Below are positions 16,449 to 63,384 of a DNA stretch of 64,000 nucleotides, piece after piece; position 1 is the stretch's first letter, and each line of letters starts with the position of its first letter. The notes below the pieces were generated by a model. The model was not told the DNA's origin. It saw nothing but the letters and a program-made list of their open reading frames with translations, and made no database searches. The DNA is taken from positions 1-64,000 of IMG/VR virus record IMGVR_UViG_3300034112_001564; one strand, given 5' to 3'. The translations under genes were made by a program, and so were the position numbers. Source of the stretch: a virus.

Positions 16449-16479
16449 GGAATCCTCCTTGATGGGGTGAAAACGGAAC

Positions 16480-16971
16480 TTACGGTTGAACGAGATTGGG
16501 GCCAGAATCGGTGTTGCGGTAGACGAATCCTGCCGTTTCGATCGCGGCCCGCAGGCAATCGACGAGTTCGCGAAGTCTCGCAATCTCGTCGCGGGCGGCA
16601 GACGTGCAGGCACGCTGCACCTCGATCTCGGTCGCCGCCTCCTCGAACAACGTGCCGCTGTGCGCGAGGTGCAGCCCACGCCAATGGCGGAGGCGGGAGA
16701 CGATGTCGCCTGAGTAGGCGGCGGTGTCGATTTTGTTCACTCCAGCCGCTCCAGCACCTCCCATGAGCCGTTCGGCCTCTGCCTTGTCGAAACTATCCTC
16801 TGGATAGGCCAGATCGACCACCGTCGGGAAGTGCCTCAGGAGACGCCGAGCCTCGTCGCGAGCGGCCTTCGGAATCTTCTTGTACCCGTCGGGCAGGTAC
16901 GGGCTAGAGAGCCGGAAGAGGAAATCTCTCGCGTAGACGACAGCTCGAGTTCGCTCTGACGGCATGGTCAT
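16480..16971 (-). CDS. BPSL0761-like hypothetical protein
   Basis: MTMPSERTRAV...FL...ARRLLRHFP. Confidence 0.6.
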   Translation of the reverse strand: MTMPSERTRAVVYARDFLFRLSSPYLPDGYKKIPKAARDEARRLLRHFPTVVDLAYPEDSFDKAEAERLMGGAGAAGVNKIDTAAYSGDIVSRLRHWRGLHLAHSGTLFEEAATEIEVQRACTSAARDEIARLRELVDCLRAAIETAGFVYRNTDSGPNLVQP

Positions 16972-17348
16972 GTCTTCACCTTCTCACTGCATGCGTCGCA
17001 CAGCGTCATGATCCAGCCACCGCCGCGACGCTCGCCAGCGGAGCCGCACTGTTCGCATGTCACGGCCGACACGGCCTCGGCCATCGCAATCACGCCCTCG
17101 CAGTAATCGTCGCCGCCGTGGTAATAGAGCCGCAAGGCTCCCCACTTTTCCTTGACTTGGGTGAACTGAAACGACGGCGACCCCGTGTGCTTCTCGCGGG
17201 CGGCGATCTCGCTGCACGCCGATCGGATGATTCCATGCCAGCCGTCTCCGCACTCGACGCCAAATGCCATGCAACTCCCCTTGCTCTCACGGTTCGCGAA
17301 GAGCGTCGGGAAGTCTTCGTAGAGCTTCTGCTCAAGTTCGGGGCTCAC
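16968..17348 (-). CDS. conserved phage protein
   Basis: ECGDGW...QVKEKWGALRLY...TCEQCG. Confidence 0.75.
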   Translation of the reverse strand: MSPELEQKLYEDFPTLFANRESKGSCMAFGVECGDGWHGIIRSACSEIAAREKHTGSPSFQFTQVKEKWGALRLYYHGGDDYCEGVIAMAEAVSAVTCEQCGSAGERRGGGWIMTLCDACSEKVKT

Positions 17349-17554
17349 AGCCTCTTCTCCATCTCGTTGCAACGAGTGTCCAGCGTGGCGTTCACGTCGC
17401 GGAGAGCGGTGATGAGCAGTCGCTGCTGCTGGTTTTCAGCCAGGAGCTTCTGGTAGCGATCGTGGCCGCGGTCGTTCTCTTCCTCCAGAGCCCTGACCTT
17501 CGCCTCAAGCGACGCCAGCCTGTTTTTCGTCAGCCAGTTGATGATCCGCTTCAT
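17345..17554 (-). CDS. coiled-coil hypothetical protein
   Basis: GAGG RBS, coupled ORF. Confidence 0.6.
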   Translation of the reverse strand: MKRIINWLTKNRLASLEAKVRALEEENDRGHDRYQKLLAENQQQRLLITALRDVNATLDTRCNEMEKRL

Positions 17555-17856
17555 TGCGTCACCTCTTTGCAAAATACGCCCTCCGGCGTCAACGTCCCAC
17601 GCCGATCCTTGATCTCCCCGTAGGCCGACGCGAGGCAGTCCTCGATCGACACGCCCTGGAGGGCCGCGTAGATGATGAGCGTCACGAGCACATCGCCCAC
17701 GCCGTCAACGATGCCCTCGCGGTCGTTCTTGAGCGTGGCGTCAGCCAGTTCGCCCAGCTCGCTGACCGTCTTCATCAACTGGGCCTGCGGCGTGCTGTTC
17801 GGGGTGATCTGGCGATCTCTCGCCCAGGATTCAACTTTATTGATTAGGTCGTGCAT
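17551..17856 (-). CDS. MazG-like nucleotide pyrophosphohydrolase
   Basis: KTVSELGEL, DGVGD, AYGEIKDRRG. Confidence 0.85.
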   Translation of the reverse strand: MHDLINKVESWARDRQITPNSTPQAQLMKTVSELGELADATLKNDREGIVDGVGDVLVTLIIYAALQGVSIEDCLASAYGEIKDRRGTLTPEGVFCKEVTQ

Positions 17857-18055
17857 CTTCCCTCCACCATGCTTGGATGATTCTGTAGTGCCGCATGATT
17901 TGTCTGGCCGATGGCCCGAAGAAAACCTCGTCCCTCGCGTAGACGTGAATCGCCGCCCCACAGGCCAGCGGCATCGTCTCGCACTCCTCGGGCACCGGGC
18001 GAACCGCCCCGTCCAGCGGGCCGCCGACGAACTCGAGACGCAGGAGTTTTGTCAT
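17837..18055 (-). CDS. hypothetical protein
   Basis: FVGGPLDG motif, GGAGG RBS. Confidence 0.6.
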   Translation of the reverse strand: MTKLLRLEFVGGPLDGAVRPVPEECETMPLACGAAIHVYARDEVFFGPSARQIMRHYRIIQAWWREDARPNQ

Positions 18056-18069
18056 GGTGGCCTCCAGGC

Positions 18070-20987: not shown

Positions 20988-21226
20988 TCACCGTTGAACC
21001 ACTGTAGCCACGTTCGCGCCGGCTTCTTGAGCTGCTCGACATCGAACAGCAAGGCGGCCCACGACTTCTCCAGAGCCTCGACGCGGGCAGTCAGGGCGGC
21101 GATTCCCCTGGTAGCGACCACCACCATGCGATCAGTCGACTCGCCCTCCTCGCGGAGATCGTGAACCGTCTTCGCGATGTCGGCGAGCGACTTCTCGACG
21201 CTGAAAACTGGCTTTTTCTTGCTCAT
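20984..21226 (-). CDS. hypothetical protein
   Basis: GGAGG RBS. Confidence 0.6.
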   Translation of the reverse strand: MSKKKPVFSVEKSLADIAKTVHDLREEGESTDRMVVVATRGIAALTARVEALEKSWAALLFDVEQLKKPARTWLQWFNGE

Positions 21227-21900
21227 GCGACCTCCTCAAACATGGTCTTCTGGGTGTCATCGACGATCATGCGGTTATCACGCTGATACCGCTTCACAAT
21301 GATTTCCAACGCCTCTCCGTAGGTCAGCCAAGGCAAATCCCGTCGAACCTTGAATGCGTCGCGCCACCAGTTGGTGCTGTCGACGCTGTCAAGACGCCGC
21401 ACCTTTGTGTAAGCACGCAAGGCCCAGCCGTGGATGTGCATGTCCTCGGGGATGTTGTCGCATGCCCAGCGAACGAACCGCTCCTTGCCCTCGCGGGGAG
21501 GCACAAGGCCGATTCCGATCCAGTTACCTCGCTCGCGGGCTATGGCGACTAAGTCCTTCAGAAGTTCCGGCGGGTCAGAGTCGTGAATAGTAGGGAATCC
21601 GTTGGGCATCGCCTCATAGTTGCGGAGGCTCTGTCGCCAGTCGCCCGCGATGTCGTCAAGCCCTGCGACCGCGTCGGCGTGTCCGTCCCAGCGGAGCGAC
21701 CAGTCGGCATACGCCGCGATGTCGATCTTCTGACCGGAGTTCAATACAGAGTACGCGCCGCTGTCGATCAGCAGCCGCCTAAAGGCGTGCTGGTACTTAT
21801 CCAGAAATGGGTCGTACAAGCCGAACGACAGTAGCACTGGCATGCCCTTCACATGCTCTGCCTGCTGCTGGTTGCCGGGGCTGGCGAGATAGACGGTCAT
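21223..21900 (-). CDS. TGT/DpdA-like guanine transglycosylase-fold protein
   Basis: IDSGAYS, LDDI, PTIH, IGIG, HIHG, DSVDSTNW; adjacent to queE/queD. Confidence 0.7.
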   Translation of the reverse strand: MTVYLASPGNQQQAEHVKGMPVLLSFGLYDPFLDKYQHAFRRLLIDSGAYSVLNSGQKIDIAAYADWSLRWDGHADAVAGLDDIAGDWRQSLRNYEAMPNGFPTIHDSDPPELLKDLVAIARERGNWIGIGLVPPREGKERFVRWACDNIPEDMHIHGWALRAYTKVRRLDSVDSTNWWRDAFKVRRDLPWLTYGEALEIIVKRYQRDNRMIVDDTQKTMFEEVA

Positions 21901-22103
21901 GTGATTGCCCTTGCGGCTCTTGCCAGATACCTGAGTTGATTTCGGGCGTGCATCGCACGGCATCTCGGGTCGCGGTAGCGCGCGGCCATGTATTCTCGGT
22001 GAGCTGCCCATTGCTCTGGAGTGCAATCCGACTTCTTGCGGCGAATGCACTTGGGAGCAACGCCGCCACTGCGGATCAAGGCAACACGATCATCGAAGGT
22101 CAT
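21897..22103 (-). CDS. hypothetical protein
   Basis: ATGA-coupled both sides. Confidence 0.55.
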   Translation of the reverse strand: MTFDDRVALIRSGGVAPKCIRRKKSDCTPEQWAAHREYMAARYRDPRCRAMHARNQLRYLARAARAIT

Positions 22104-22510
22104 GTGCTGTTCCTCGCCATCACGTCGAAGTTCATCAGGAACACAACGGCGGCCTCAAGCGAGTCAAGGATCGCGTGTGTGTGAACCATGAGCCACGGGC
22201 TTGGTGCTGACGCATCGGAGAACGCGACGACGCCTTTGCCGCTGTCCCACGCCCGAACCACCTCCATAGCAGTCCCCCAAGACGGCCGCGAAGCATTGAC
22301 AAGGACAAAGTTGCAAGCGGCGATCGCGTGGAGGTCTGCTGAGACCAACTCCCTGGCGGCTGAGGCTTCCCGCCCCCTCAAGTCCCAGTCCATCGGATCA
22401 AATATGTCGAACTGGCCGCTGCTGAGGAGCTGCCGCGCCCTTGCACGCCAAGCCATGCACTCGTCGTCGGAGCACCCGTTTATGGGGCCAGCGAGGTATA
22501 CAGCCTTCAT
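22100..22510 (-). CDS. nucleoside 2-deoxyribosyltransferase (NDT)/nucleotide N-hydrolase family
   Basis: VYLAGP, DLHAI, SWGTAME, SPW. Confidence 0.8.
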   Translation of the reverse strand: MKAVYLAGPINGCSDDECMAWRARARQLLSSGQFDIFDPMDWDLRGREASAARELVSADLHAIAACNFVLVNASRPSWGTAMEVVRAWDSGKGVVAFSDASAPSPWLMVHTHAILDSLEAAVVFLMNFDVMARNST

Positions 22511-23091
22511 GGCATCCCCCACGACTTGTGAGACTGTGCGCACAGCGTGTAATCGCGGTGCGTCTTGACCCATTCGACGCAGGCGGCGAGTGACTCTCGG
22601 CTCCCAGCCATAGGCTGGACGTAGCGATAGCCGAAGTCGGTGCCTGACAAGTCAAAATCTTCCAGCGCCATTTCGTTCAGGCCGGGCACGAGCTTTAGCT
22701 CCGCGCCCATCCGCTGCTCAAAACGCGCGGTGTGCGGCGAAACGGAAACCCACCACCAGTGGCCTTCCACTTTTCTCACGCCGCTCGTGGCGATGCACGG
22801 CTTGAAGTCCGCAGACCACAGAGCGAGATTGAGGGCGGAAAGGTCTTGGTCTGTCGGCTCGCCGCCAGTCACCCAGACGTACTTCGCTCGGCCGTTCTCA
22901 GCCCGGAGGCGAACGCACTCGTCGACAACCTCGGCGACCGTCGCCTCGCGAGCGAACGTGTAGTTCGTGTCGCATGTCGGGCAGCCGACGCTGCAACCGG
23001 AAAGACGTATGAAAACCATAGGCTCGCCGACGAAGTGCCCCTCGCCCTGGATCGTCCAATACACGCCCTGGCTGGCTAGCGTGAGTCTCAT
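22507..23091 (-). CDS. queE: 7-carboxy-7-deazaguanine synthase (radical SAM)
   Basis: TIQGEG, FIRLSGCSVGCPTCDT, VTGGEP, C-terminal QSHK. Confidence 0.92.
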   Translation of the reverse strand: MRLTLASQGVYWTIQGEGHFVGEPMVFIRLSGCSVGCPTCDTNYTFAREATVAEVVDECVRLRAENGRAKYVWVTGGEPTDQDLSALNLALWSADFKPCIATSGVRKVEGHWWWVSVSPHTARFEQRMGAELKLVPGLNEMALEDFDLSGTDFGYRYVQPMAGSRESLAACVEWVKTHRDYTLCAQSHKSWGMP

Positions 23092-23483
23092 GGCGTCACC
23101 GTCACCGAGGATGTGTCGGTCTCGTGCAGGACGAGGCTCACGACGTTGAGGCCGGCGGCGACGAGCCGCTCCGCGAGATGCTGCGCCATGTTCTCGCACG
23201 ACGTTTGAAACGGCACTTCGTAGACCTTTCCGCAGGCACCGCTGGCGATAAGCGCCGGCTTGGCCGGGTCTTTGCTGTACAAAAGAAGCGAGTGATCTAG
23301 TTCTGCGACCACCGTCATTGCCGCATCCTCGAGCGAGGCGAATGGGATGGTGACGCTGCCGGCCTTGTCGTGACGGACTGAAATGTCCACGCCGTAGCGA
23401 TGGCCGTGGATGTTCTCGCACTTTCCGCAAATCTCAGGATTGCGGTGCGCGGCGTAGAAATGAAGCTTCTTTGTGACAATCAC
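23088..23483 (-). CDS. queD: 6-carboxy-5,6,7,8-tetrahydropterin synthase
   Basis: FYAAHR, C..IHGH.Y, LDH, TSCEN, LHET. Confidence 0.9.
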   Translation of the reverse strand: MIVTKKLHFYAAHRNPEICGKCENIHGHRYGVDISVRHDKAGSVTIPFASLEDAAMTVVAELDHSLLLYSKDPAKPALIASGACGKVYEVPFQTSCENMAQHLAERLVAAGLNVVSLVLHETDTSSVTVTP

Positions 23484-23662
23484 GTCGCAGGCTCCTTCGA
23501 CGGTGCTCGGTAGATCAGCTCGTCCCGCACGATCTTGATGTGCTTGGGGGCGTTGATCACGAGCCTGACCGTCTTCCCGACGACCGACTCAACCGTGATC
23601 TCGATATGCGGCCGGTCCAGAATGAGCTTCTGGCCGGGGCGCCGCGTGAGACAAAGAGCCAT
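23480..23662 (-). CDS. csrA: carbon storage regulator (CsrA/RsmA) RNA-binding protein
   Basis: LCLTRRPGQKL...IEITV...VRLVINAPKHIKIVRDEL. Confidence 0.85.
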   Translation of the reverse strand: MALCLTRRPGQKLILDRPHIEITVESVVGKTVRLVINAPKHIKIVRDELIYRAPSKEPAT

Positions 23663-23696
23663 TTCAGGAGTCCTTTCCGATGTGTGCGGCAGTAGC

Positions 23697-24173
23697 TTAA
23701 CGAGACCCAACTGTCCTGTCCAGATGTTTTTTGCACGCCTCCTTCACCATCTGCCGAGGGTGGCTCTCGGCAGCCCACTTCAGGTAGTCCAAGCCTCGCG
23801 GCTGCTTCTCTACCTCGTCAAGTGTCAGGCCGGCGAACCGGCCGTCTCGCAGGACGAACTCCTGCCCTCGAGGCTTGAGATGCCCCTTGATGGCCTTCAC
23901 CCACTGGCCGGTGCCGCAGAACGCGCACGAGAGATACCACTCGCCATGCTCCTCGTGCAGGATGTCGTGGGATTGGGTGTTGCAGGCTGCGTCAGCGCAG
24001 TCGTAAGTGTGGTCGATCATGCCGATGGGCAGGATCGCCCTCTGCGGCCTTGAATCCGCTTTATAGATCGGAGTCTCTTGGATGACCTGCACCGCATCCG
24101 CCTGCGCGCGAGAAGGCCGCTTCTTGGAGGATCGAGTCGGCTCGTCGGGGGTTATGTCGAAAAGCGTGTCCAT
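23697..24173 (-). CDS. hypothetical protein with Zn-ribbon
   Basis: CADAAC...CAFC; GRFAGLTLDEV...YLKW. Confidence 0.65.
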   Translation of the reverse strand: MDTLFDITPDEPTRSSKKRPSRAQADAVQVIQETPIYKADSRPQRAILPIGMIDHTYDCADAACNTQSHDILHEEHGEWYLSCAFCGTGQWVKAIKGHLKPRGQEFVLRDGRFAGLTLDEVEKQPRGLDYLKWAAESHPRQMVKEACKKHLDRTVGSR

Positions 24174-25825
24174 CAGCGTGGCAACTCCATTGCGTAAGGT
24201 TCGTCCGACTCGCACACAATCAGCCGCTCTTTGGCTCGAGTAACGCCGACATACTCGATCCGGCACTCCTCGTCGTGGCAGCGTGGGTCCAGCTCTCGCT
24301 CCTGCTCGACCCGCGCGGCCGTCTCGGTCGCCAGGATTACGTCTTGGGCCTCCATCCCCTTGGCCCCGTGGATCGTCGATAGCCTCACGTTCGGCTTGGT
24401 GGCGACCTCCGGCCCATGCCGCTTGGCAGAGTCGTACCACTTCTTCCCGCCGTCAAGCAGGCTAGCCCAGCCCCCAGACCGGATCATATCGACCAGGGAC
24501 TCCGTAGCCCCGCCGACACTGACGATCTCGTCGGCCGGCAGGAAGTCGACATCGTCCCGCCGGCCGCTTGACCACGCAGTCTTCTCGCCACGACGCAGGA
24601 AAATGGCGTCGCCAGTAGCCTTTACGGGCGTCAGTTCGATTGCCGCCTTCCACTCATGGCCGCCGATGTCCTGGCCGTGCTGGAGCTTCCAGTAGGCGTT
24701 GAATGCGACGAGCGCCTTGGTGTCATCCTTCTCGTTGATGCCGGCATGCGGGATTCGGCGGGACTCGAGCACCTCGGAGAACTTCGCCAGCGAGAAGTTG
24801 CAGCGTGCTAGTACCAGTGTCGTGCGGCTGCCGTCGATCTGGCACAAGGCCCGCTCGACAGACGCCTCTCGAATCACGCACCCGTCGTGAGAGGCTGGGG
24901 CGATCTTCCTGTCGAAGTAACCCTTGTGCATCCGCTTCAGGCACCGTTCGCCAAGCTCCATGACGGCCTTCGGGCAACGCCACGACTGAGGCATCGTCCG
25001 CTCCTTGTTGACGCTCCACGACAGGAAGTTGTTGTAGTCCGCCCCGCCAAACCCAAAGACCGACTGGAAGGGGTCTGCGGCCAGATACGCCCACTTCACG
25101 CCTGGGGCGTAGGCCAGCCGCCGGCAGACGCGGTCTACCAGAGCCGAGGCGTCCTGGGCTTCGTCGAATATCCACGCCCGCACGCCCGCGGGCGTGTCCC
25201 CGGCGGGATCGACCTCCTCCGGCCCCTCCAGCTCGAACCGGACGCCGCAGTACCGCCCCAGGAGGTCGACGAAGTCCATTTTCCCGTCGATCCTCTTGGC
25301 TTCCTCGTACTTCCTGACGAAATGCCTCACCGTGGTGATAGGAGGCACCTCTAAGCCCGCGTGAGACTTTTCGGCATGAACGGACGCCAGGGGCACGATC
25401 CGGTTCCTAGCGATGTCCCAGAGCGTCAGAGAGGCAGCCGCCTCGGAGTCGCCGACGCACGCCGAATACCCGCTGTCGGCTACCTTCTTCCACGAGACAG
25501 AGACCCGCAGGCGGTCGGCGACCCACTTCGACGCCTTGTTGTCGCCGGCCAGCATCGCATCCGGCTTGACCTCTAGCATCTTGTGGCAGGTCGAATGCAC
25601 CGTCCTGAACCAGCCATGCCTGTCCAGCAGGCTGTGGTGGCAGTCGAACGCCGCCGCAGCCCGGTTCACCATCTCCTCGCGTGCCGCGGTCGTGAAGCTC
25701 GCAAACCCGATTGCTGCCGGCGAGTCGCCGATCTCGCCGAGTACGCTCTTCATGATCCCCAGCAGTTCCGTCGTCTTGCCAGTTCCTGCCCCGCCGATCA
25801 GCCGCGCGACCTGTGTTTCGCTCAT
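24173..25825 (-). CDS. UvrD/SF1 helicase
   Basis: GGAGTGKTT, DEAQD, QSWR, STIHGAKG.E, YVGVTRA. Confidence 0.92.
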   Translation of the reverse strand: MSETQVARLIGGAGTGKTTELLGIMKSVLGEIGDSPAAIGFASFTTAAREEMVNRAAAAFDCHHSLLDRHGWFRTVHSTCHKMLEVKPDAMLAGDNKASKWVADRLRVSVSWKKVADSGYSACVGDSEAAASLTLWDIARNRIVPLASVHAEKSHAGLEVPPITTVRHFVRKYEEAKRIDGKMDFVDLLGRYCGVRFELEGPEEVDPAGDTPAGVRAWIFDEAQDASALVDRVCRRLAYAPGVKWAYLAADPFQSVFGFGGADYNNFLSWSVNKERTMPQSWRCPKAVMELGERCLKRMHKGYFDRKIAPASHDGCVIREASVERALCQIDGSRTTLVLARCNFSLAKFSEVLESRRIPHAGINEKDDTKALVAFNAYWKLQHGQDIGGHEWKAAIELTPVKATGDAIFLRRGEKTAWSSGRRDDVDFLPADEIVSVGGATESLVDMIRSGGWASLLDGGKKWYDSAKRHGPEVATKPNVRLSTIHGAKGMEAQDVILATETAARVEQERELDPRCHDEECRIEYVGVTRAKERLIVCESDEPYAMELPR

Positions 25826-25903
25826 TGGACCGCTTTTCCTTTCTGGGTGTTTTGTGGGCCGGTTTTCGGTCCACCGTAAAGTCTTATCCAGTAGCCACTT
25901 AGG

Positions 25904-27661
25904 TCACGTTGGCCCACAAACCAGCGTTCCCGCGCTCATAATTGGTTTTTCCAAATCAATTTGGCCCCTATATATAAGGGCCTTTTGGTCCGAACCTCCG
26001 TCAGGATGGGCAATGTTCTCAAGATGGGCAACATGGGCTTGTGTCCACACGACGTACCGACGCCTGACGCCTGCCTCTGTCCGCACCCGCTCTACCCGAA
26101 ACTCGTCCTCGCCGGCTGCTGCCAGCATCCGCCTCTTGAGGGCCACCATGTCGCCCTCGTTGAGCCGGACCTTCCTTGTCTTCTGGATGTCCTCGAAGAC
26201 CCGAGTCCACGAGAAGTAGAGTTCGTAGACGCCGTCGCCAGACCGCACCCAGCACGGTCTGCCAGACGGGTGAGGCATGGAGTCGTCCATATCCGGCTCC
26301 GGCTTGGCGATGTTCGACAAACCGTCCAGCAGCCACCCCGCCACGACCGCATACCGCTGCTGTTCGGCAGGCGGCCACTCCTCGTCCCGATCATCCATCA
26401 GCTTGACCTTCAGCCCGCGAACCTTGACGGTCTTCTTCTCGCCTTCCGGCTTGTAGGAGTATCCGTTCCAGATTTTCGCCCACTCCTTCGGGTTTGGGTC
26501 CGTCACGTCGATCGTGCCGGTGGCCTCGAGCACCTTGCGGGCGACGGCGATCGGGCTTGACCAGTCTGCGCTGGTCAAGGAGACGAAGACACGCATCTTC
26601 TCGTCCTCGTCATCGTCCTGAGTGGCCCCAGGCAGGGGCACTCCCAGTCGGAACTCCTTGGGGTCAGAGTGGACGACAGTCAGCCGCCACAGGCCGGGGA
26701 ACCACTCGCCGCCGCGGATTTCCAGACCGCTGGCGGTGTGGGGGCTCTTCGCCCTGGCCTCGCGAACCTTCTCGTCAGCGTCCTTGTCTGTGCTTGCGAT
26801 CTTCGTGGCCCCGGAAGCCCTGGCCTTCATGCCCCAGCGGAGCTGCCCCTGCCATATCGAAACAAGTTGGGGGTCTTTAAGAGGGTCCGCCAACTGGGTC
26901 TTGTTAAGGGCGCGGAGGATTGTCAGCACGTTCTGCTGTTCAGCCGGGTCGTGCGGGTCTCGCATCCGCATGATCTCAGATGACACCCAGGCAACGAGCG
27001 CGTCGTTGCGCTCGCCCTCGACAATGATCCGCTCGTAGATCGTGTTTTTGGTGATCTCGCCTTCGCCGCCCTCGCCTCCGCACGCGGCTATGACCGCGAG
27101 CACAAGTGCCTCCGGCATCGTTGCCAGCTCGACTTCGTCGGGCGACCGCCCCGGCTCCCACGCATACTTCTTTCCGGTGTGGTGGACGCTAGGAGGAATG
27201 ATCGACTGCGTCATCTTGCCGCCGCCGCCGAACCGCACCTCCAGGCCATCGATCTTCTTGACGCCCTTGGATATGTCAACGAGCCGCTTGTCTATCTTCC
27301 ATAGGCGATGGCCGCCTCGGGAGGAGACGAACCCTGGGGTCGGTATGCCGAGCAGGCCAAACCGCTTCGCGGTTGCGAATGACTTCTCGTCATCCCACTC
27401 GGTATCGATCACGCCGCTGGACGGCCCGAGGGGGAGCCCGATGTTCCACATCTCTCCGTCCTCGTACCACGACGCAATCGTGTCCTCGTCGGTCGTGACG
27501 TGGAGAAGCCAGTCATCATGAATCGGATGCTTCCCCGGCATTCCGCATGACTTCCCCCGGAAGCACATGCAGCCCCCGTCGTCGCGCATTCCGTAGTTCT
27601 GCACCATCGGCCAGCCTTGGTTGGCCGCGTATCCTGCTGCTGCTTTGAAAATGTCGTTCAT
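25904..27661 (-). CDS. bifunctional primase-polymerase (prim-pol) domain protein
   Basis: GKHP, NIGL, IDTE, GGHRLW, PPSVH, GERN. Confidence 0.85.
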   Translation of the reverse strand: MNDIFKAAAGYAANQGWPMVQNYGMRDDGGCMCFRGKSCGMPGKHPIHDDWLLHVTTDEDTIASWYEDGEMWNIGLPLGPSSGVIDTEWDDEKSFATAKRFGLLGIPTPGFVSSRGGHRLWKIDKRLVDISKGVKKIDGLEVRFGGGGKMTQSIIPPSVHHTGKKYAWEPGRSPDEVELATMPEALVLAVIAACGGEGGEGEITKNTIYERIIVEGERNDALVAWVSSEIMRMRDPHDPAEQQNVLTILRALNKTQLADPLKDPQLVSIWQGQLRWGMKARASGATKIASTDKDADEKVREARAKSPHTASGLEIRGGEWFPGLWRLTVVHSDPKEFRLGVPLPGATQDDDEDEKMRVFVSLTSADWSSPIAVARKVLEATGTIDVTDPNPKEWAKIWNGYSYKPEGEKKTVKVRGLKVKLMDDRDEEWPPAEQQRYAVVAGWLLDGLSNIAKPEPDMDDSMPHPSGRPCWVRSGDGVYELYFSWTRVFEDIQKTRKVRLNEGDMVALKRRMLAAAGEDEFRVERVRTEAGVRRRYVVWTQAHVAHLENIAHPDGGSDQKALIYRGQIDLEKPIMSAGTLVCGPT

Positions 27662-28542: not shown

Positions 28543-28583
28543 TGTTCGCCTCCCTGCCTTCGCTGTTGGTGTTTGGGTGTTGT

Positions 28584-28883: not shown

Positions 28884-28915
28884 TGATCAGTTCCTTCTTG
28901 GTGGTTGTGTTCGTT

Positions 28916-28961
28916 AAAAGACCCCCTGCGGAGCCGCCATCGCTGGCGACCCCGCAGGGGT
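28916..28961 (-). terminator. intrinsic terminator
   Basis: long GC stem CCCCTGCGG...CCGCAGGGG followed by TTTT. Confidence 0.65.
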
Positions 28962-50775: not shown

Positions 50776-50776
50776 C

Positions 50777-55400: not shown

Positions 55401-58400
55401 AGCCTCTCCAATCTTCTCTGCGAGCTGGTCGGCCTGCTCCTTCGTGGAGGCGAGACCAATGGTACCCTTCCTGGCAGCGCTCTCGACGAAAGCTGCGTAC
55501 TTGTTGAAGGCGTCGGCGACGGGGCCGCTAGCCGCCGCCCCGATGTCCAGCAGCTTGGCCCTGATGAATCCGATCTGCTTTTCTGTGCGAGTGAACGCCG
55601 CGGTGTTCAGCGCGTCTCCAAGCGTGCCGCCGAGCTTGGCGGCCTGCTGCGTTCTGGTCAGCGCCCGCTCAAGGCCAGCGACCTTCTTTGCGACTGCATC
55701 GATCTCCGCCGCAGTTGACGATGGGCCAAGCCCCTTAAATGCGTCTCGAACCTTGTTGATCGCCGGAATCAACTGAGCCTGCAACGGCGTCGGCAGCTTT
55801 TCAAGGCTGGTCTGGAGCGATACGACATTAGCTTGGAGGTTGGCGTATCCACGAGCGGCTGTGCCGAAGTCTGCTCCAAGAACGTCCACTGGCGGTTTCG
55901 GCGGTTTCGGCGGCGGTGCCGCCGCGATCGCTGCGTCCCGCAACTGGCCCGCACGCTGGCCGGCAAGCCTCGCAGCCGCCTCGTTGCCAGCATTCGCGCC
56001 GACGAACGTCTCGATCTTGGCGATGTTCTTCTCGCCGATGGCTTTCATCGGGCCGTCAAGTTTCGCGACCGCCGCCTTGGCCTCGGCAAGGTTTTTCTTG
56101 AGGATATCGATGGGCTGGCTCGGATTCGCGCCGTCTCCGATGGCCGCCATCGCAGCCTTGAGGTCATCTGCCGCCTTCTTCGCCTGCAACTCCTTGTCGA
56201 CGAGATCGACGAACACCTTGATCAGCGGCGCGCCGAAGTCCGCGTTACCAAGCCCCGCGATGGCCGCGTCCTTGGCGGTCGTCACCCTCGCCAAGGCGGC
56301 GGGGTCGAGGCTGCCGGCTCTGGCGATGGTGCTACGCAGCTCGCCCTCGGCCTGCGCCCTGTTCTGCGGCAGTCCCGTGAACTGGAACGCGGCGGACTCC
56401 TTGAGGGCGTCGATGCTGGCCTTCAGGTCATCCGTCTTCTTCTTGGCGTCTGCGGTAGTGAGGTTGAACTTCTTGTCCTGGGCGACCTTGAATGCGATCT
56501 GGTCAAGAACGTCGTTGTACTTGTCCAAGTCGCCCAATTGTCGCGCCATTGCCGCGTCTTCTAGGAGCGGCTTGTAGTTCTGACGCTGTGCGCGGTCTAG
56601 GCCGACGATGTCGCCTTCTAGCTGCCCTCGGCGGCCGTCTGCCTGCTCCATGTTCTGCGGACGGCCGGTGATGACGAAGGCGGCGCGCTCGCGCATTGAC
56701 GTGATCTTCGCCGTGATCTCGTCAGCCTTTCTCTGCGCCTCGGCGGTGTCAATGGTGACCCTGATTTCTTTTTCCGCGACCTCCTGAGCCTCGCCGAGCT
56801 TCTTGATAACAAGATCAAGCGACAGTTGCGCTGGCCCCGTCGGGAGGCTATCAGCAATCACTGCTTGCAGCTTCGCGTACCGAACCGTGGCCTCCTGCGA
56901 AAGCCTGTTGACCTCCACGAGCGACTCGACAATCCTCGGGTTTGCCTGAATCGCCGAGGCCGGCAGCGCCGCTGCTTTGTCGCCGATAGCCGCTCCGCGG
57001 TCCAAAGACTCGGACAGCCCGGGCTGGTCAAAGAAAAGCTCCCTGCCGGTCTTGATCTTCCCGACCTTCGCCGACGCCTCGGCCAATCGCGAGACCGACG
57101 CCACGACCTGATCGACATCCTGCTTTATGCCGACGAACGTGGCCTCAATTGCCTTGGCGGGAGCGACGCCGTCATCGATCAGTCTTGCCAGCGACTCAAG
57201 ATCGTTTTGCACGCTTGAGAGCGCAGGCAGGAAACCAGCCTGAACCTCTCTGGTCAGCGTACCGAACTGCTGCGTGGCTGCCGCGATAGGCTTTGACAGC
57301 TCCTCCGACTGAGACACCATCTGCCGCATCTTCGTCGTCGCGGCCGTCAGGTCAGAGCGGCCAAGCTCTTCCATGACGCGAGGCAGTTTGCCGAGTACCG
57401 CCCCCGCGGCCTCGGCCTTCTTGGCGACATCGTCAAGCGTCTGAATGTCGACGTTCACGCCGAACTCAGCGGTGACCTTTTTGCCAAGTTGGCGATTCAG
57501 CTTGCCGAGCGTGCTTTCTGCCTCTGTCAGCTCGTCGTACTTCGCCTTGATGTCGACGACGCGCCCGCTGGCCTTGGCCTTCTCCAGAGCGGCCGTCAGC
57601 CTGTCGACCCTGTCCTGCGCCTCGGCGATCTGTGCCTTGAACTCGTCTGTCGATACACTGATCTTGGCGACCCTGGCCTGCTTCTTTTCAAGCGAATCGA
57701 TCTCCTCCGAGATGCCGTCGATCACCGCGCGGACCTTTTGAAGCTCTCGTTCATCACCGCGAACGCGAATGGCCTTCGCCTCAAGGGATGCCCGCTTGCT
57801 GTTCAGCGCATCAAGTTGTTCGTTGATCGCGTCGAGTTCGCGCGAACCGCCGCCGCCGGCTGCGGCCTGATCCTGCAACCTCTTCAAGGCCGCCGTAGCC
57901 TTGGCAAGCCGCCCCTCGAGCTTCTGCACCGCGGCGTCATCGACGGGGACGGTAACCTTGCCACCGCTGTCGGCCGCGGACTTGATCTCCTGCTTCAGCG
58001 CCTGAATCCGATCTTTGGCCGATTCGACATCCGCCGCCACCTTCATAACAGCGGGCGACGACCTGATCTGCTCACGAAGCTCGTTGATCTTCTCCAGGCC
58101 GCCGACGCGGGTGATGATCTCCACGTCCTTCGACGTAAGGCCGTTGATGGCATCGCGGAATTCCGTGATGCTCTTCATTCCGCTCGTCTTCAGGACGATG
58201 TCGATCTGTCGCTCGTTGAGACCTTGCAGCCGCCGCTGAAGGGCGTCCACGTCTCCGATGAGACCCTTGAAGCCCTTGAACGATAGCTTCATCGACTCGG
58301 CGGCCCGCAGAGACCGCTCGACTTTCTGGAGGGGCGTGTAGATACCCTCCAGAGCCCTAGCAGCCTGAGTGGACGCCGATGTCAGGTTGCCCTGCACCCG

Positions 58401-58508
58401 GCTGGCGAAGTTGGCGACTTCTTTCGCAGACTTCGCCAGCTTGCTGTCGAAGTCTCCCGTGCTCGCCGAGACAACTGCACTGATCTTGCCGAGGTAGCCG
58501 TTTGCCAT
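52497..58508 (-). CDS. tape measure protein
   Basis: 2003 aa, Ala-rich helical, follows G/GT chaperones. Confidence 0.88.
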   Translation of the reverse strand: MANGYLGKISAVVSASTGDFDSKLAKSAKEVANFASRVQGNLTSASTQAARALEGIYTPLQKVERSLRAAESMKLSFKGFKGLIGDVDALQRRLQGLNERQIDIVLKTSGMKSITEFRDAINGLTSKDVEIITRVGGLEKINELREQIRSSPAVMKVAADVESAKDRIQALKQEIKSAADSGGKVTVPVDDAAVQKLEGRLAKATAALKRLQDQAAAGGGGSRELDAINEQLDALNSKRASLEAKAIRVRGDERELQKVRAVIDGISEEIDSLEKKQARVAKISVSTDEFKAQIAEAQDRVDRLTAALEKAKASGRVVDIKAKYDELTEAESTLGKLNRQLGKKVTAEFGVNVDIQTLDDVAKKAEAAGAVLGKLPRVMEELGRSDLTAATTKMRQMVSQSEELSKPIAAATQQFGTLTREVQAGFLPALSSVQNDLESLARLIDDGVAPAKAIEATFVGIKQDVDQVVASVSRLAEASAKVGKIKTGRELFFDQPGLSESLDRGAAIGDKAAALPASAIQANPRIVESLVEVNRLSQEATVRYAKLQAVIADSLPTGPAQLSLDLVIKKLGEAQEVAEKEIRVTIDTAEAQRKADEITAKITSMRERAAFVITGRPQNMEQADGRRGQLEGDIVGLDRAQRQNYKPLLEDAAMARQLGDLDKYNDVLDQIAFKVAQDKKFNLTTADAKKKTDDLKASIDALKESAAFQFTGLPQNRAQAEGELRSTIARAGSLDPAALARVTTAKDAAIAGLGNADFGAPLIKVFVDLVDKELQAKKAADDLKAAMAAIGDGANPSQPIDILKKNLAEAKAAVAKLDGPMKAIGEKNIAKIETFVGANAGNEAAARLAGQRAGQLRDAAIAAAPPPKPPKPPVDVLGADFGTAARGYANLQANVVSLQTSLEKLPTPLQAQLIPAINKVRDAFKGLGPSSTAAEIDAVAKKVAGLERALTRTQQAAKLGGTLGDALNTAAFTRTEKQIGFIRAKLLDIGAAASGPVADAFNKYAAFVESAARKGTIGLASTKEQADQLAEKIGEAALAAGLFKSKAEAASFVKGIGDVGRAGADKFALGLNQAIFAVDDFMSSTGGLEFKLRAVSNNITQLGFIVGGTTGLFVGLGAVIAGQAAVGLIKWANNGRSAEDQTKALNEALARQKSLVEDLAQAFRSLGDAMSRGTFSAGGEQAAEFSRQMEDIRKKQNEAIRNNVADFDPEVIKERAEQRKLQDDIEKSTDVGEIVGLQRQLEDSRRRERDAADRAVSAPPPDFGQIQKRLRESLEAQAVAAARDEGASNPDDPFAPARAAAPFMERAASVPLAGSVSEAREQVDARIKELSTQIEGGLLTSNEAATAKKEIAELRLVLGSLSAPLLREINRTANEIAESSRGPAAQIRQAQEDVAEAIRRGVPNAAAFQRELDANAKKLKEAYVSLEEAQKETDPDKKRAKVDEAKANIDQVEAEGAGIRLRSRETRLGRTFGGERTTAALASIQGNERFAGDEYSIRTTAYIEAAIDREIEARGQLEVATAKGSDAEIKAAEAELEAAQSASEAAAAFAEAAVAVEAALTRIRKVGESAVQRSEQGADAAQKAFEENPLRAGSGQSRDDAERRLIDDRARVAQAQVDLDIRRGVVQNDPRMQGINKEFEAITQRRADLEAKARIGSLDPAEQNELDAARKREIELMRQREHLARNLTEAERKQLDAINNGIAAREKELEKSRQRAAEDPTFKRRMDAANQIIADSERQANEAQERYINNPTEQNRTDRNAADAQLRADRELAQKLQDDLDNKRKEIEQDPLFAANNRLIAANDERLAALAEKEASVGLTQREKDERIARQKDSRRMLAERDLMIADGTRDEQKAIDIERMIQNDRDRALRGRDLGMTDRERFRKEFTEGAGADINANALDMLLKGENPQAFLRQAIQNQMEQVAPMLQQFQEERQNALLQGPSRAALNVSDVSTSQGQSELNRLLRGDDSAKDVNLAELRKQTDKLDEVVRAIKEGNPGVLL

Positions 58509-58512
58509 CGAT

Positions 58513-58836
58513 TCATCCCTGAATTGGCGTGTTCAACTTCATCAGCTCGGCCATGATCTGATCGTTCGTCTGCTCCGGCTTGATCACGCTCGGGATGAAC
58601 GCAGCCTCGTCTGGGAGGTCATGCTTCTTGTAGTTCCCAGACGAGGCCATGATCACCCTGCACAGTCTGGCCGTTTGCCCCCACGGGTCAGGCAGCGGCC
58701 ACCTCTGATCAAATGCGTACCATTCGGCGATCTCCGCGCTGTCAACCTCCTGCAACAGACGCTTGACGCTCATCCCCAGCGTCGCCGCTAGGCGGAAGTA
58801 GAACCTCCGCTCTGGGCGGTTTCGGAATCTTCCCCC
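58513..58836 (-). CDS. tail assembly chaperone GT extension (-1 frame)
   Basis: open -1 frame from slippery site: RFRNRPERRFYFRLAATLGMSVKRLL...EW.A. Confidence 0.75.
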   Translation of the reverse strand, partial: GGRFRNRPERRFYFRLAATLGMSVKRLLQEVDSAEIAEWYAFDQRWPLPDPWGQTARLCRVIMASSGNYKKHDLPDEAAFIPSVIKPEQTNDQIMAELMKLNTPIQG

Positions 58837-59159
58837 AGGGCATCCACTGCCTCCTGCGTGAAGGCATTCAGCTTCCAGCCGGCCTCGAAGAGACGGTTGA
58901 TCACAACCGAAGACTTCTTGCCGAGAATGTCGGCCTCGTCGTCACTGAAGAGCCGCTCTCCATCCTCGTCGCACAGAGCGAGCAGGAGGAAGCGAATGCG
59001 AAACGCCTTCATCTTCTGGTCGGCGTAGCTCTCCTCGAACCTGTCGCGGTCGGTGCCAGTGAGCACACGGAGATACACGTCGCCCTTCCACTCGGGGACG
59101 GCGACCTTCTCCTTGCGAACGTCGTCGGCGGCCAGGATGCTCTTTCGATCAAGTGCCAT
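58788..59159 (-). CDS. tail assembly chaperone G
   Basis: VAVPEW.G.V..R.LTG.DRD.FE...LCDEDGERLF. Confidence 0.85.
   Translation of the reverse strand: MALDRKSILAADDVRKEKVAVPEWKGDVYLRVLTGTDRDRFEESYADQKMKAFRIRFLLLALCDEDGERLFSDDEADILGKKSSVVINRLFEAGWKLNAFTQEAVDALGEDSETAQSGGSTSA
58830..58836 (-). other. programmed -1 frameshift site GGGGGAA
   Basis: CTG GGG GAA near end of G; -1 frame joins the 58513-58773 ORF. Confidence 0.75.
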
Positions 59160-59204
59160 GTCTGCTCTGCTCCCAGTAACGGTGTGGCGCGGCATCCTTG
59201 CCGG

Positions 59205-59590: not shown

Positions 59591-59920
59591 TTAGGCGACC
59601 CGCCAAGTCGCGTTGCCCTTGATGAGATCGCCGACGGTGCCGCCCACGGTCGACGCCGTGAGGGTGGCGTTGCCGGTGAAGCTAACCGGGCCGGCGATGC
59701 TGATCGCCGCGGACTGAATCGTGATGACGGTCGTGGCGATGTAGTCGCAGGAGATTTCCCGCTGCACGAACGTGGGGACGTACTCCCGACGCCCGCCAGG
59801 GGGGATGCCGAGATGCGAACCATCGGCGTTGTCGATCTGGTCGTTGACATTGAAGCTCGTAATCACCAGCGTCTGACCGCTGTAGGTCATCGTCACGCCC
59901 ATCGCAGCAACACCGGCCAT
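59591..59920 (-). CDS. tail tube-like protein 1
   Basis: position after tail terminator, AAGGAGG RBS. Confidence 0.6.
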   Translation of the reverse strand: MAGVAAMGVTMTYSGQTLVITSFNVNDQIDNADGSHLGIPPGGRREYVPTFVQREISCDYIATTVITIQSAAISIAGPVSFTGNATLTASTVGGTVGDLIKGNATWRVA

Positions 59921-59944
59921 AGTGCGCCTCCTTGCGCTAAAGTC

Positions 59945-61104: not shown

Positions 61105-61427
61105 GTCGCGTCCTCCCTCGCCAGTATCTCATGGATCGAGCGGGTCTCTCGCTCAAGGACGCTAGAAATCTCCATCACACGGCCCCTCCAGAGAAGCCGG
61201 TGCTGGTGATTTAGGCCGGGGAAGAACCTGATCCGAACGCGGTGCGTCACGATCGCGCCGGCCTGCTGGGCGGCGAAGTAGTCGCTGGCCCTAACGCCCA
61301 TGATGCTGGCGTAGACTGTGGCCTCGTCCACCCAGGTCAGCGTCGTCTCGCCGAAGGAACTCTGCTGCTCCACGGGCTTCTGGATCGTGACCCGCTCGCG
61401 CATCGTGCCCGAATTGATCATGGTCAC
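61101..61427 (-). CDS. head closure (head-tail adaptor) protein
   Basis: G.MRERVTIQ...W...THRVRIR. Confidence 0.85.
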   Translation of the reverse strand: MTMINSGTMRERVTIQKPVEQQSSFGETTLTWVDEATVYASIMGVRASDYFAAQQAGAIVTHRVRIRFFPGLNHQHRLLWRGRVMEISSVLERETRSIHEILAREDAT

Positions 61428-61753
61428 CCCATCCAGAGGGCGGTGTACGAACCCGTGCCGGACGGCGCAGAGACTGTGATCGTCGTTGTAACTGGCAGCA
61501 CGGCCACGCGGCCGGCGGCCACGTTGAAGCTGCCAGCCAGCCGCAGGACGCTCGTGCCCGTGTTCTTGACCACCAGCGTCGAGAGCGGCGTCGCCCCGAC
61601 GATCTGAACGGCGGCTGTGCCGACGCTGCCGTTGATCGTCTGAGCGCTCGTCAGCGACGGGGAAATGTGCTCGGACAGCGAGCCGATCGTGAGCGAAGTG
61701 TCACTCGAGTCGTGGTAGACGGCGTCGATGTCGATGCGGGCCTTGACGGTCAT
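61424..61753 (-). CDS. hypothetical virion protein
   Basis: ATGA-coupled within head-tail module. Confidence 0.65.
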   Translation of the reverse strand: MTVKARIDIDAVYHDSSDTSLTIGSLSEHISPSLTSAQTINGSVGTAAVQIVGATPLSTLVVKNTGTSVLRLAGSFNVAAGRVAVLPVTTTITVSAPSGTGSYTALWMG

Positions 61754-62391
61754 CGGTAAACCCCCATGCTGGCCGCGGCCAGGAGCGTATCGAACGTCTG
61801 CGGCACAGAAACGGGTGCCCCCGTGACCGCCGGCTGCCTCGTGTCGAACCAGTGGGCCACGAGCAGGCAAATCAAGTGCTTGACCACGGGCGGCGCGCTC
61901 TGCCCGTCGTCGCCGTAGCCCGCCGAATACCGCACCGTGACTGAATTTTCGTCGCCGCGGGTCGCGGGCCAAGCTCTGGCCCACTGCGGGTAAATCCGCC
62001 CAGGCAGGACGCTGGCGTCGACCTGAAAGTCGCCGTTCGCGCTCAAGAGCGTGCCGTAGGTGCCGTCGCCGTTGCGATAGGTCACCGTGATCGACCTGTC
62101 CAGAAGCGGCAGGCGGGGCAGGATGATCGCCCAGACAGGAAACAGGTCGTACTTGGCCTCCCACACGGTCGTGCAGATCGTGATGTCAAGAACATCCTCG
62201 ACATACTGCCTCGCCACGGCGATGAGACCCTGGATGTAGAGGTCATCCACATCGGTATCCACCCGGCAATGCTGCTTCGCCGTCGACAGGCTGACCGGCT
62301 CCACGGCCGGGTTCGTAATGCGTCGCAGGCTGCGAAACGGCGTAATCGTCGCCGTCGGCCTCTGCGGCGTGCCGAAGACAATCTGATCCAT
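61750..62391 (-). CDS. head-tail connector protein (gp6-like)
   Basis: EPVSL..AK.H.RVD, AGYG, LLVAHWF..R. Confidence 0.9.
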   Translation of the reverse strand: MDQIVFGTPQRPTATITPFRSLRRITNPAVEPVSLSTAKQHCRVDTDVDDLYIQGLIAVARQYVEDVLDITICTTVWEAKYDLFPVWAIILPRLPLLDRSITVTYRNGDGTYGTLLSANGDFQVDASVLPGRIYPQWARAWPATRGDENSVTVRYSAGYGDDGQSAPPVVKHLICLLVAHWFDTRQPAVTGAPVSVPQTFDTLLAAASMGVYR

Positions 62392-62583
62392 TTATCGCCT
62401 CTTCTTCGGTGTGTGCTTGACGGCCACTTCCGCACGCTCGACGGCCTCGGGGACAGCCTCGGCGGTCTCGACCTCTTCGATCAGCCCGCGGCGGATGAGG
62501 ATGTCGCACATCCCGGCCGCCCAGTCCTCGAAGACCTGCCCCTTCTCGTAGCAGTCAAAATTCTGGAGCACGCGGATTTTCAA
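62392..62583 (-). CDS. small head-module protein
   Basis: TTG start overlapping upstream stop; LIRRGLIE, basic tail. Confidence 0.6.
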   Translation of the reverse strand: MKIRVLQNFDCYEKGQVFEDWAAGMCDILIRRGLIEEVETAEAVPEAVERAEVAVKHTPKKRR

Positions 62584-63308
62584 TGAACGTGCCCCCAGGC
62601 GCTTTCCGGTGCCTTCTGGCCGTTCGTCCAGTATTCCGTCGTGTGCTGCTGCACCTTGCCGCCGTCGGCCGTCCTCGAGGGCCATGTGACCATCAGTTCG
62701 GCGTGGCCGACGCTGACATGCGTGGCGAGGCCCAGCTTGTTGCCGCAGGCGGCCCACGACTTCCAGAACGAGATGTCCTCGTCGGTATGGCCCCCCGTCC
62801 ACTCTCCCTGGTCGTTCGCCTTGGCGAGGAACCAGGGCTTCTTCATCTTCTTGAGGCCCGAGGTCCGCAGGAATGTCAGGCCGAAGTGGGCCGTCTCCAC
62901 GGGCTGCACGACCTTGTTGAAGAAGTCGCCGTCCACCGTCGTCTTCTGGTCAACGTCACTGCCGGCCAGGGCGAACATCACCGCGTTCGCCTCCCGCTTC
63001 GTCTGAAGCGGAGCGATGGCGTCGTAGCCAGAGTGCAGGAGCAGTGCAAGGAGCGCCTCGACCGTCTTCGCACTGAAGACCGTGTCGTAGTCGATGGTCA
63101 GGATCACGTCGTGCGTGTCGACGACCTGCTCCATCGCTCGCTGAAGGCACTGGCCCCAGAAGGCACCCGTCACCTTGATGGGACTGATGCCATGCGGGGC
63201 CAGTGCCGACGAGACACAGAAGAAATTGTCGGTAAATCCAAGCCGCGGGGTGCTCATCACCGCCGCGACTTTGATTTCCGCTTCGACGTTACCGACTCTG
63301 ATCAGCAT
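62580..63308 (-). CDS. putative GT-A fold glycosyltransferase
   Basis: ILTIDYD (DxD), HFGLTFL, PWF, EDISF, VGH. Confidence 0.55.
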   Translation of the reverse strand: MLIRVGNVEAEIKVAAVMSTPRLGFTDNFFCVSSALAPHGISPIKVTGAFWGQCLQRAMEQVVDTHDVILTIDYDTVFSAKTVEALLALLLHSGYDAIAPLQTKREANAVMFALAGSDVDQKTTVDGDFFNKVVQPVETAHFGLTFLRTSGLKKMKKPWFLAKANDQGEWTGGHTDEDISFWKSWAACGNKLGLATHVSVGHAELMVTWPSRTADGGKVQQHTTEYWTNGQKAPESAWGHVH

Positions 63309-63384
63309 GGATCGCTCCGTGTGTGGAGCGGGCGCGCATCCATGCGCCTTTGTCGGCCATCATGGCCGTCCCGCAGTTCGGGAA

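Follow-up and report, generated by a model that had tools for sequence, protein, structure and literature searches.

ANGGAN hexaloop hairpins in the leaders of an uncultured csrA-bearing phage clade: a putative phage Csr regulon

The first 64,000 bases of the 72,419-base virus record IMGVR_UViG_3300034112_001564 of IMG/VR (this whole stretch is called the window; guanine-cytosine (GC) content ~63%) encode a homologue of CsrA and carry, in the leaders of several genes including csrA itself, short hairpins that have the sequence ANGGAN as a hexaloop directly on the stem. From the sequence alone, a first-pass annotation had proposed a putative phage Csr regulon on the basis of seven such hairpins. 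This proposal is supported computationally, as stem-closed ANGGAN is enriched in leaders, is register-specific in relatives of the phage and is absent as a pattern from 76 csrA-less pieces of viral DNA. The hairpin pattern is real, non-random, conserved and covarying. That it represents a phage-borne Csr translational regulon including autoregulation, with phage CsrA as the binder and with repression and timing of translation as the outcome, is considered the probable explanation.

The ANGGAX hexaloop directly on a stem has been described as the high-affinity site of CsrA/RsmE, in which A, G, G and A are specifically read, while a shorter or longer loop or a lost stem leads to lower affinity (Duss et al., 2014; PMC4005645). 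On the side of the phages, csrA has been counted in 30 of 2,517 phage genomes (~1%), with no function given in the passage concerned (Sobrero & Valverde, 2020; PMC7366521). For the csrA of phage PTXU04, a study that calls the role of phage csrA untested until then describes a small-plaque phenotype upon knock-down and nothing further (Adler et al., 2025; PMC11879866). The function of phage csrA is, as far as the relevant sections of these reports go, usually guessed to be host manipulation, to which self-regulation would, if true, add a new aspect.

Stem-closed ANGGAN sites in the leaders of the phage

Genes were called with a heuristic caller (codon log-odds, Shine-Dalgarno (SD) bonus and greedy selection), which gave 103 genes with start positions that depend on the caller. 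All 369 ANGGAN hexamers on both strands of the genome were then classified, with a leader defined as the 4-35 nucleotides (nt) upstream of a called start and a loop considered closed if flanked by at least three Watson-Crick pairs. Seven of the 35 leader sites are closed, three of them by at least four pairs, as compared to 12/334 of the remaining sites (Fisher p 8e-4). If the 3' flanks of the 35 leader sites are exchanged at random, which preserves SD and flank composition and thus provides an SD-matched null, a mean of 0.77 sites is closed, and 0/20,000 permutations reach seven; the enrichment of stem-closed ANGGAN beyond SD expectation implied by the regulon proposal is therefore present (7/35 versus ~0.8 expected). 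With the 3' arm slid from -3 to +3 columns, the closed counts are 1, 0, 0, 7, 3, 2 and 0, the seven belonging to the unshifted arm. Other hexaloops in leaders are closed in 1.6-2.0% and all hexaloops genome-wide in 2.05% of cases.

All seven stem-ANGGAN-stem strings of the first-pass annotation are found in the window, six on the - strand and one (32828-32839) on the + strand, and an eighth leader hairpin, which had been missed, lies at the ribosome binding site (RBS) of csrA (Table 1). Equally, the accompanying caveat that several loops double as SD sequences was borne out, since five of the seven loops start 12-16 nt before the start codon and therefore are the SD sequence itself. Among the others, the hairpin upstream of gene 62580-63308 is accompanied by a second ANGGAN, ACGGAG, that serves as SD 22 nt downstream; this hairpin is kept in the related genomes G001 and G002 and has the form GGCGC-ATGGAG-GCGCC in G004. 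The hairpin at the tail assembly chaperone gene is located 40 nt upstream of the called start 59159 or, alternatively, holds in its loop an ATG at 59195. The called start of 8554-8700 may be wrong, because the nearby hairpin is intergenic in G001 and G002.

The stability of the hairpins differs. The 4-base-pair (bp) hairpin at the chaperone gene has a free energy (dG) of -5.2 kcal/mol and a pair probability of ~1, and the 3-bp stems alone are marginal (dG -0.8 to +1.0 kcal/mol, pair probabilities 0 to 0.4). As complementarity is selected even though these stems are weak, they fit stems that are stabilised by a protein. A promoter-like TTGACT-17-TATCCT just upstream of the hairpin of the SNF2 helicase may put the transcript start right at the hairpin.

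The pattern in relatives and in csrA-less viruses

An IMG/VR search with the helicase that precedes csrA returned 55 loci with 100% down to 34% identity and a search with CsrA returned 8 loci; the CsrA hits were made into a profile that served to detect csrA in relatives. The gene lies ~0.5-2 kb downstream of the helicase in 52/55 helicase loci; two of the remaining loci (L036 and L062) are cut off at the helicase, and L061 is without csrA, its whole record (G005) having no PF02599 match. Every relative locus long enough to judge has csrA after the helicase.

Pooled, the relatives contributed 1,427 leaders, distinct by their sequence from -30 to -1 after exclusion of leaders that are the same in this phage, which were scanned for loop lengths of 3 to 9 nt and all GGA registers. 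If GGA occupies loop positions 3-5, 125/1,698 hexaloops (7.4%) are closed, as compared to 0.6-2.4% for other loop lengths and registers; the exception, an 8-nt loop with GGA at positions 4-6 (93/1,566), is taken to represent these hairpins again, offset by one pair. Within the hexaloops, the first base is decisive, with 117/679 loops (17%) closed if it is A and 8/1,019 with any other first base. The loops mostly start 11-16 nt from the start codon, the most frequent closed loops are AAGGAG (61), ACGGAG (18) and ATGGAG (10), and the closing pairs are C-G (52), A-U (49), G-C (13) and U-A (3). Taken individually, four complete csrA-bearing relatives have 9/44, 5/40, 5/47 and 5/33 closed sites, each against 0.6-0.9 expected.

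As controls served 80 random high-GC viral contig pieces drawn by an arbitrary 16-mer and one Pseudomonas phage record, of which five below 6 kb were dropped, leaving 76 pieces, none with csrA by the profile. Their 1,573 called genes have 418 leader ANGGAN sites with 6 closed versus ~5 expected, so that relatives and controls differ with a Fisher p of 2e-19 (117/679 versus 6/418). Independently of gene calls, with ANGGAN counted wherever an ATG comes 4-9 nt behind it, 103/704 sites are closed in the clade and 12/711 in the controls. The csrA-less record G005 has 0/33 sites closed; with only 3/103 proteins shared with this phage, it counts as a further control rather than as a sister lineage.

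Conservation and covariation of individual hairpins

The best-conserved copy is located in the leader of csrA itself, where a closed ANGGAN hexaloop occurs in 33/39 distinct leaders of relatives, with stems as different as GGA/TCC, AACGG/CCGTT, GCTGA/TCAGC, TCCGA/TCGGA, CGCAA/TTGCG and GAGG/CCTC. When 37 distinct csrA leaders are aligned, 83% of the cells of a 5-bp helix are paired versus 61% upon shuffling, and double changes are found in 5/5 pairs. The covariation score amounts to 0.578 versus 0.201 shuffled, with 0/500 shuffles as high and slid controls at 0.017-0.205. Stem exchange is seen at other leaders as well: the SNF2 helicase leader has compensatory stems (GCT/AGC, GCA/TGC and GCC/GGC; 7 different stems among 17 closed), gene 16110-16448 has ATC/GAT in this phage versus TTC/GAA in orthologues, and 7 different stems occur among the 8 closed of 19 distinct leaders of the 73-aa (amino acid) open reading frame (ORF).

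Hairpins of the same type are also present inside coding regions. A 7-bp hairpin (30333-30352) is situated ~100 nt before the stop codon of the gene for a DUF7307 protein and is present in 31/40 distinct orthologous genes. Among 35 aligned DUF7307 sequences 90% of the cells of the helix are paired, with one pair varying between G-C (16), C-G (10) and U-A (5), and the covariation score is 0.303 versus 0.097, with 0/500 shuffles as high. In this varying pair, a synonymous third position of an Ala codon is paired with position one of an Arg/Ser/Gly codon, and the stem is thus preserved although the protein sequence varies. The candidate role of this hairpin as a hidden RBS was rejected, since relatives do not retain the GTG codon that comes after it in this phage, in frame with the next gene. 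Two or three further ANGGAN hairpins lie upstream in the same gene, two of these positions being occupied in 19/40 orthologues each, and nowhere else on the - strand is ANGGA as dense as in this gene (6 copies per 200 nt versus a mean of 0.64). The resulting cluster of three to four hairpins (30333-30532) is a candidate mRNA-embedded decoy. Another intragenic hairpin, 52 nt into gene 15785-16078, is found at the same place in G001 (GGCTC/GAGCC) and G002 (GGCGC/GCGCC).

The conservation of hairpins that are not SD sequences (30333-30352, 16016-16031 and 63334-63347) shows that the loop is selected apart from ribosome binding. The SD caveat is answered by the existence of covarying non-SD hairpins together with the need for A as the first loop base.

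Table 1. ANGGAN hairpins and annotated genes of the phage (positions in the record; hairpins in mRNA sense)
Feature	Position	Strand	Remarks
GGA-AAGGAC-TCC	23667-23678	-	RBS of csrA; candidate autoregulatory operator
ATC-AAGGAG-GAT	16452-16463	-	RBS of gene 16110-16448 (112 aa, no family match)
GCT-AAGGAG-AGC	32048-32059	-	RBS of SNF2-type helicase gene
CAC-ATGGAG-GTG	32828-32839	+	RBS of 73-aa ORF 32847-33068 just upstream of integrase
ATTC-AGGGAT-GAAT	58511-58524	-	RBS of 2003-aa ORF 52497-58508; ATTC-AAGGAT-GAAT in G001
CGGC-AAGGAT-GCCG	59190-59203	-	At or upstream of tail assembly chaperone start
GCGC-AAGGAG-GCGC	59924-59937	-	RBS of 109-aa ORF 59591-59920; identical in G001, G002 and G004
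GCGC-ATGGAT-GCGC	63334-63347	-	35 nt before start of 62580-63308; not the SD
GGTC-ATGGAC-GACC	8577-8590	+	Near called start of 8554-8700
GGCGGGC-AAGGAC-GCCCGCC	30333-30352	-	7 bp, inside DUF7307 gene; dG -15.2 kcal/mol
Three further ANGGAN hairpins	30411-30424, 30496-30515 (with G-U pairs), 30517-30532	-	Inside DUF7307 gene
GGCTC-AGGGAA-GAGCC	16016-16031	-	52 nt into gene 15785-16078
csrA, 60 aa	23480-23662	-	Pfam CsrA PF02599, E 2.3e-14
158-aa Cys-rich ORF	23697-24173	-	Precedes csrA
Helicase	24173-25825	-	Replication module; precedes csrA; PHROG/Pfam
SNF2-type helicase	30647-32041	-	Replication module; PHROG/Pfam
DUF7307 protein	30241-30705	-	Replication module; PHROG/Pfam
Primase		-	Replication module; PHROG/Pfam
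QueD-like, QueE-like, nucleoside deoxyribosyltransferase, DpdA/TGT-like	21223-23483		7-deazaguanine module; PHROG/Pfam
Integrase	33165-34019	+	Just downstream of 73-aa ORF
Large terminase, portal, prohead protease, major capsid	63849-70623		Siphovirus-type structural genes; PHROG/Pfam scans
Adaptor, head closure, tail terminator, tail assembly chaperone, 2003-aa tape-measure-sized ORF, 2098-aa J-like tail protein			Rest of structural module, in this order; PHROG/Pfam scans

CsrA and its gene neighbourhood

The assignment of csrA by the first-pass annotation is confirmed by the Pfam match, in which the protein passes PF02599 with 53.5 bits versus a cut-off of 27 (residues 3-50 on profile positions 2-48 of 53), and by a match to PHROG 9500 'CsrA-like regulator' (5.6e-14). 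Its residues 3-55 can be aligned with CsrA and RsmE chains of solved structure, and both the beta-1 LTRR and the arginine of VR(D/E)E are kept, as in the alignment with the CsrA chains 2bti and 1y00 (LCLTRR versus LILTRR and IKIVRDE versus VSVHREE), and these positions are also retained in the CsrA homologues of the clade. The beta-1 L-x-L-T-R-R and the arginine of V-x-V-H-R-E-E are RNA-contact residues of CsrA. Proteins of the CsrA/RsmA family are interlocked homodimers that have two RNA-binding surfaces, an arrangement predicted for the phage protein as well by its likeness to the solved structures.

The order helicase, 158-aa ORF and csrA is conserved in nearly all relatives. The 158-aa ORF has a conserved Cys/His cluster and an FRDGRF...PRG..Y..WAA segment and may, by the look of its sequence, be a zinc-finger replication accessory protein; considered as a FliW-like partner of CsrA, it gave no PHROG or Pfam match and was rejected as such. 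A consensus scan near csrA detected no sigma-70-type promoter and no terminator. In most relatives the csrA hairpin is preceded, at a distance of a few to ~20 nt, by the word TAGGCTAC or TAAGCTAC, which occurs in the window at 23692-23699 (-), 8188-8195 (+) and 8211-8218 (+), 3 occurrences versus 0.5 expected; this word may be a -10-like promoter element.

Directly 3' of csrA, the 7-deazaguanine module begins with a queD start that overlaps the csrA stop. A link of csrA to these genes was considered and rejected, as they adjoin csrA in few relatives only, for which reason the module looks like an accessory insertion at that spot.

Genome organisation and further sequence features

The + strand holds many small ORFs in 140-9046 as well as the 73-aa ORF and the integrase (32847-34019), and all remaining genes are on the - strand. 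Within the structural module, the 2003-aa ORF is the tape measure by position and size and the chaperone label of the first-pass annotation is upheld by a match of PHROG 344 to 58791-59159; its label 'tail tube' for the 109-aa ORF 59591-59920, which has no PHROG or Pfam match, could not be confirmed. No cultured relative was found in the phage collection, where megablast of 20 kb retrieved only a 52-bp match and tblastn gave at most 34% identity for the SNF2 helicase and at most 29% for the helicase. DNA near-identical to window positions 23400-33100 is present in many lake-water metagenome runs, eight of them marked as possible sources, with no RNA run among those listed.

Several repeated elements mark the region of the small + strand ORFs. 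A tandem array of ~12 copies of a ~32-nt unit (spacing 30, 31 or 34 nt) with the core ACGACGGCAGGGGCTCAGGCA occupies 1480-1954 within a 689-nt gap without a called gene and could represent iterons, an origin or a non-coding RNA; as it carries no GGA motif, it is unlike a CsrA sponge. A dispersed motif, CCCCG-N4-CGGCGAAAC or CGTGGAAAC, has at least 20 copies on the + strand in 1953-9325, six of them in tandem at 24-nt spacing in 1953-2092 and the others 25-45 nt before the starts of small + strand ORFs. The leaders of these ORFs resemble each other (...CCCCG..AGGAGAAC..GACG-ATG), and the motif is possibly an element for the regulation or processing of early genes. A promoter-like repeat of 78 nt, with 76% identity between its copies at 24-101 and 2460-2537, contains TTGACC, a spacer and TATCCT and faces the + strand ORFs. 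Its -10 word TATCCT also precedes the SNF2 helicase leader and recurs in the orthologues of this gene. Between gene 32092-32634 and the SNF2 leader lies a hairpin (32093-32110) that resembles a terminator, has T runs on either strand and overlaps the promoter-like site.

With respect to the host, the genome collection gave as its closest match an assembly labelled Chakrabartia sp., in which a 50.8-kb phage contig encodes a helicase of 77% identity and also carries the only CsrA match of the assembly; among 300 other genomes sampled from the Chakrabartia family, 0 had a PF02599 match and 0 the helicase. Binning places other relatives in Planctomycetota and further assemblies that possess csrA copies of their own. 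As the binning of phage contigs is unreliable, the label Chakrabartia sp. does not fix the host. Should the host be a CsrA-free alphaproteobacterium, the infected cell would contain no CsrA other than that of the phage.

Interpretation and alternatives

CsrA is the likely binder of the hairpins because the enriched shape equals the published optimum, including the intolerance to other loop sizes and first bases, and the location of the best-kept site on csrA itself is what an autoregulated repressor would show. In such a phage-borne regulon, the clade would have placed a high-affinity CsrA operator, the ANGGAN hexaloop directly on a short stem, in its own mRNAs, at the RBSs of a subset of genes and at a few intragenic sites. 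CsrA would be produced from the replication-module operon, after the helicase, and upon accumulation its dimer would clamp the hairpins. Where the loop is the SD, binding of the 30S subunit would be blocked and translation lowered. Predicted targets would be csrA (negative autoregulation), the SNF2 helicase heading the replication operon, the small ORF before the integrase and several tail genes. The multi-hairpin cluster of the DUF7307 gene might bind further dimers, with a role that could be that of a decoy or buffer, mRNA stabilisation or another one. A more far-reaching picture can be drawn of a self-contained viral Csr circuit, in which CsrA and its operators are brought into possibly CsrA-less hosts, are autoregulated and buffered by the DUF7307 decoy and act as a post-transcriptional timer of the switch from replication to assembly and of the integrase operon; this picture is tentative and, at present, rather doubtful.

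A number of observations weigh against a Csr regulon. The SNF2 site can pair instead with an upstream CCUCC, with an in-context pair probability of the hairpin of ~0, and conservation is partial at most targets, with 17/40 (SNF2), 8/19 (73-aa ORF) and 7/36 (gene 16110) distinct leaders closed. Second GGA sites, which many CsrA targets have and which the dimer bridges, are not enriched near the hairpins (extra GGA in -48 to +12: 0.69 in hairpin leaders versus 0.77 in others, p 0.51), the leader with the hairpin 63334-63347 plus the SD ACGGAG and the DUF7307 cluster being exceptions with several GGA sites. The called gene starts come from our own heuristic caller. Among the antagonists of Csr/Rsm systems, a multi-GGA sponge small RNA of the type of CsrB, RsmY or RsmZ had no Rfam family match at gathering scores in the window and a FliW-like protein was not recognised in general PHROG and Pfam scans of the window proteins. 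Furthermore, the link of csrA and hairpins concerns one clade and hence is a single evolutionary association. As a csrA-less sister lineage, L061/G005 was rejected in view of the few proteins in common, and a search for relatives of G005 gave the csrA-bearing clade again. The unrelated csrA-bearing Pseudomonas phage JBD90 (KM389247.1, F116-like) has 2/18 sites closed versus 0.4 expected, which is no clear enrichment, and no hairpin at its csrA, in a test that is rough, with no more than 62 genes called over the 61 kb of JBD90; the pattern therefore belongs to this clade and is no general trait of phages with csrA. F116-like Pseudomonas phages, several Vibrio phages and others carry csrA, with 84 records matched.

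Chance or post-hoc selection, with ordinary SDs flanked by complementary triplets by accident, comes to mind because the stems are short and the pattern had been picked after seeing the data. With 0/20,000 permutations reaching the observed count, replication in relatives against controls and covariation both at the csrA RBS and at 30333-30352, this explanation has next to no probability and is counted as already refuted. On the other hand, the hairpins might be self-acting without a trans factor, showing the SD single-stranded in a loop so that the GC-rich mRNA cannot bury it and thereby tuning initiation, in line with the fact that most loops, predominantly AAGGAG, coincide with the SD and, starting 11-16 nt ahead of the start codon, have its usual spacing. 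Presentation of the SD, however, would need neither A as the first base (8/1,019 otherwise) nor an exact 6-nt loop, and the 76 high-GC csrA-less pieces are devoid of the pattern (6/418 closed). Moreover, conserved covarying copies inside coding regions and another copy 35 nt upstream of a start speak against it, as do the 3-bp stems, too weak to hold the structure unaided, and a purely self-acting role is distinctly unlikely.

Equally, the hairpins might be operators for another RNA-binding factor, either clade-specific or from the host such as host CsrA/RsmA, with phage CsrA acting mainly on host mRNAs. Host manipulation by phage csrA has been proposed in the literature, as in the csrA section of one report (PMC11879866), some relatives are binned with Planctomycetota assemblies carrying several csrA copies and many ORFs of this phage are without a known family. 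Against such a factor stand the identity of the motif with the published CsrA/RsmE optimum, the position of the best-conserved copy on csrA's own RBS and, binning being weak evidence for a host, the Chakrabartia sp. assembly that has its only CsrA on the phage contig, with 0/300 sampled genomes of the family having a match; we deem this alternative unlikely.

The preferred explanation, a regulon governed by phage CsrA, would provide for one large uncultured clade a testable alternative to host manipulation, namely phage CsrA acting on phage genes. Candidate operators can be named at base resolution, including the RBS of csrA itself, and the natural compensatory variants constitute a ready mutant series. 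The intragenic sites might serve as an internal decoy. Should the host family truly lack CsrA, a portable repressor-operator system would be at hand, usable as an orthogonal translational control module. In the full-text literature, with subscription journals outside the coverage, no report of CsrA operators on phage genes or of a phage Csr regulon was found.

Comparison with known systems

CsrA of E. coli autoregulates by binding its own leader at the SD. The phage is alike in that the RBS of csrA harbours the best-conserved hairpin, and differs from the several sites of E. coli csrA by a predicted single candidate hexaloop operator. Translational control by phage proteins is itself well established, with the MS2 coat protein binding the operator hairpin of replicase and T4 RegA acting as a phage translational repressor. 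The proposed phage Csr regulon would resemble these systems in that timing or amounts are set by an earlier-made phage protein through its binding to the RBS RNA of phage genes, although the protein family is unrelated and the operator is the CsrA motif.

A close molecular parallel is the repression of hcnA by RsmE/CsrA in Pseudomonas (PMC4005645; solved complexes 2jpp and 2mf0-2mfh), which, as described there, has the RBS equally arranged as an A-N-GGA-X hexaloop on a stem. Also alike is the small CsrA-family protein with conserved RNA-contact residues, from which a block of 30S binding would be expected in the phage. In contrast to hcnA, mostly a single hairpin per target is present, second GGA sites are not enriched and no sponge small RNA was recognised in the window; the closing pairs in the clade are C-G or A-U, as compared to C-G and then U-A in the RsmZ stem-loops. 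Here, protein and candidate operators are both encoded by the phage.

Homologues of CsrA on mobile elements, presumed to help the element, have been noted before in phages including PTXU04 (PMC11879866) and as CsrT on a Legionella integrative and conjugative element (ICE), cited in PMC7366521. Whereas the csrA passages of these earlier reports are without target sites on the element, the clade described here combines csrA with predicted cognate operators on the genes of the phage itself, conserved across the clade.

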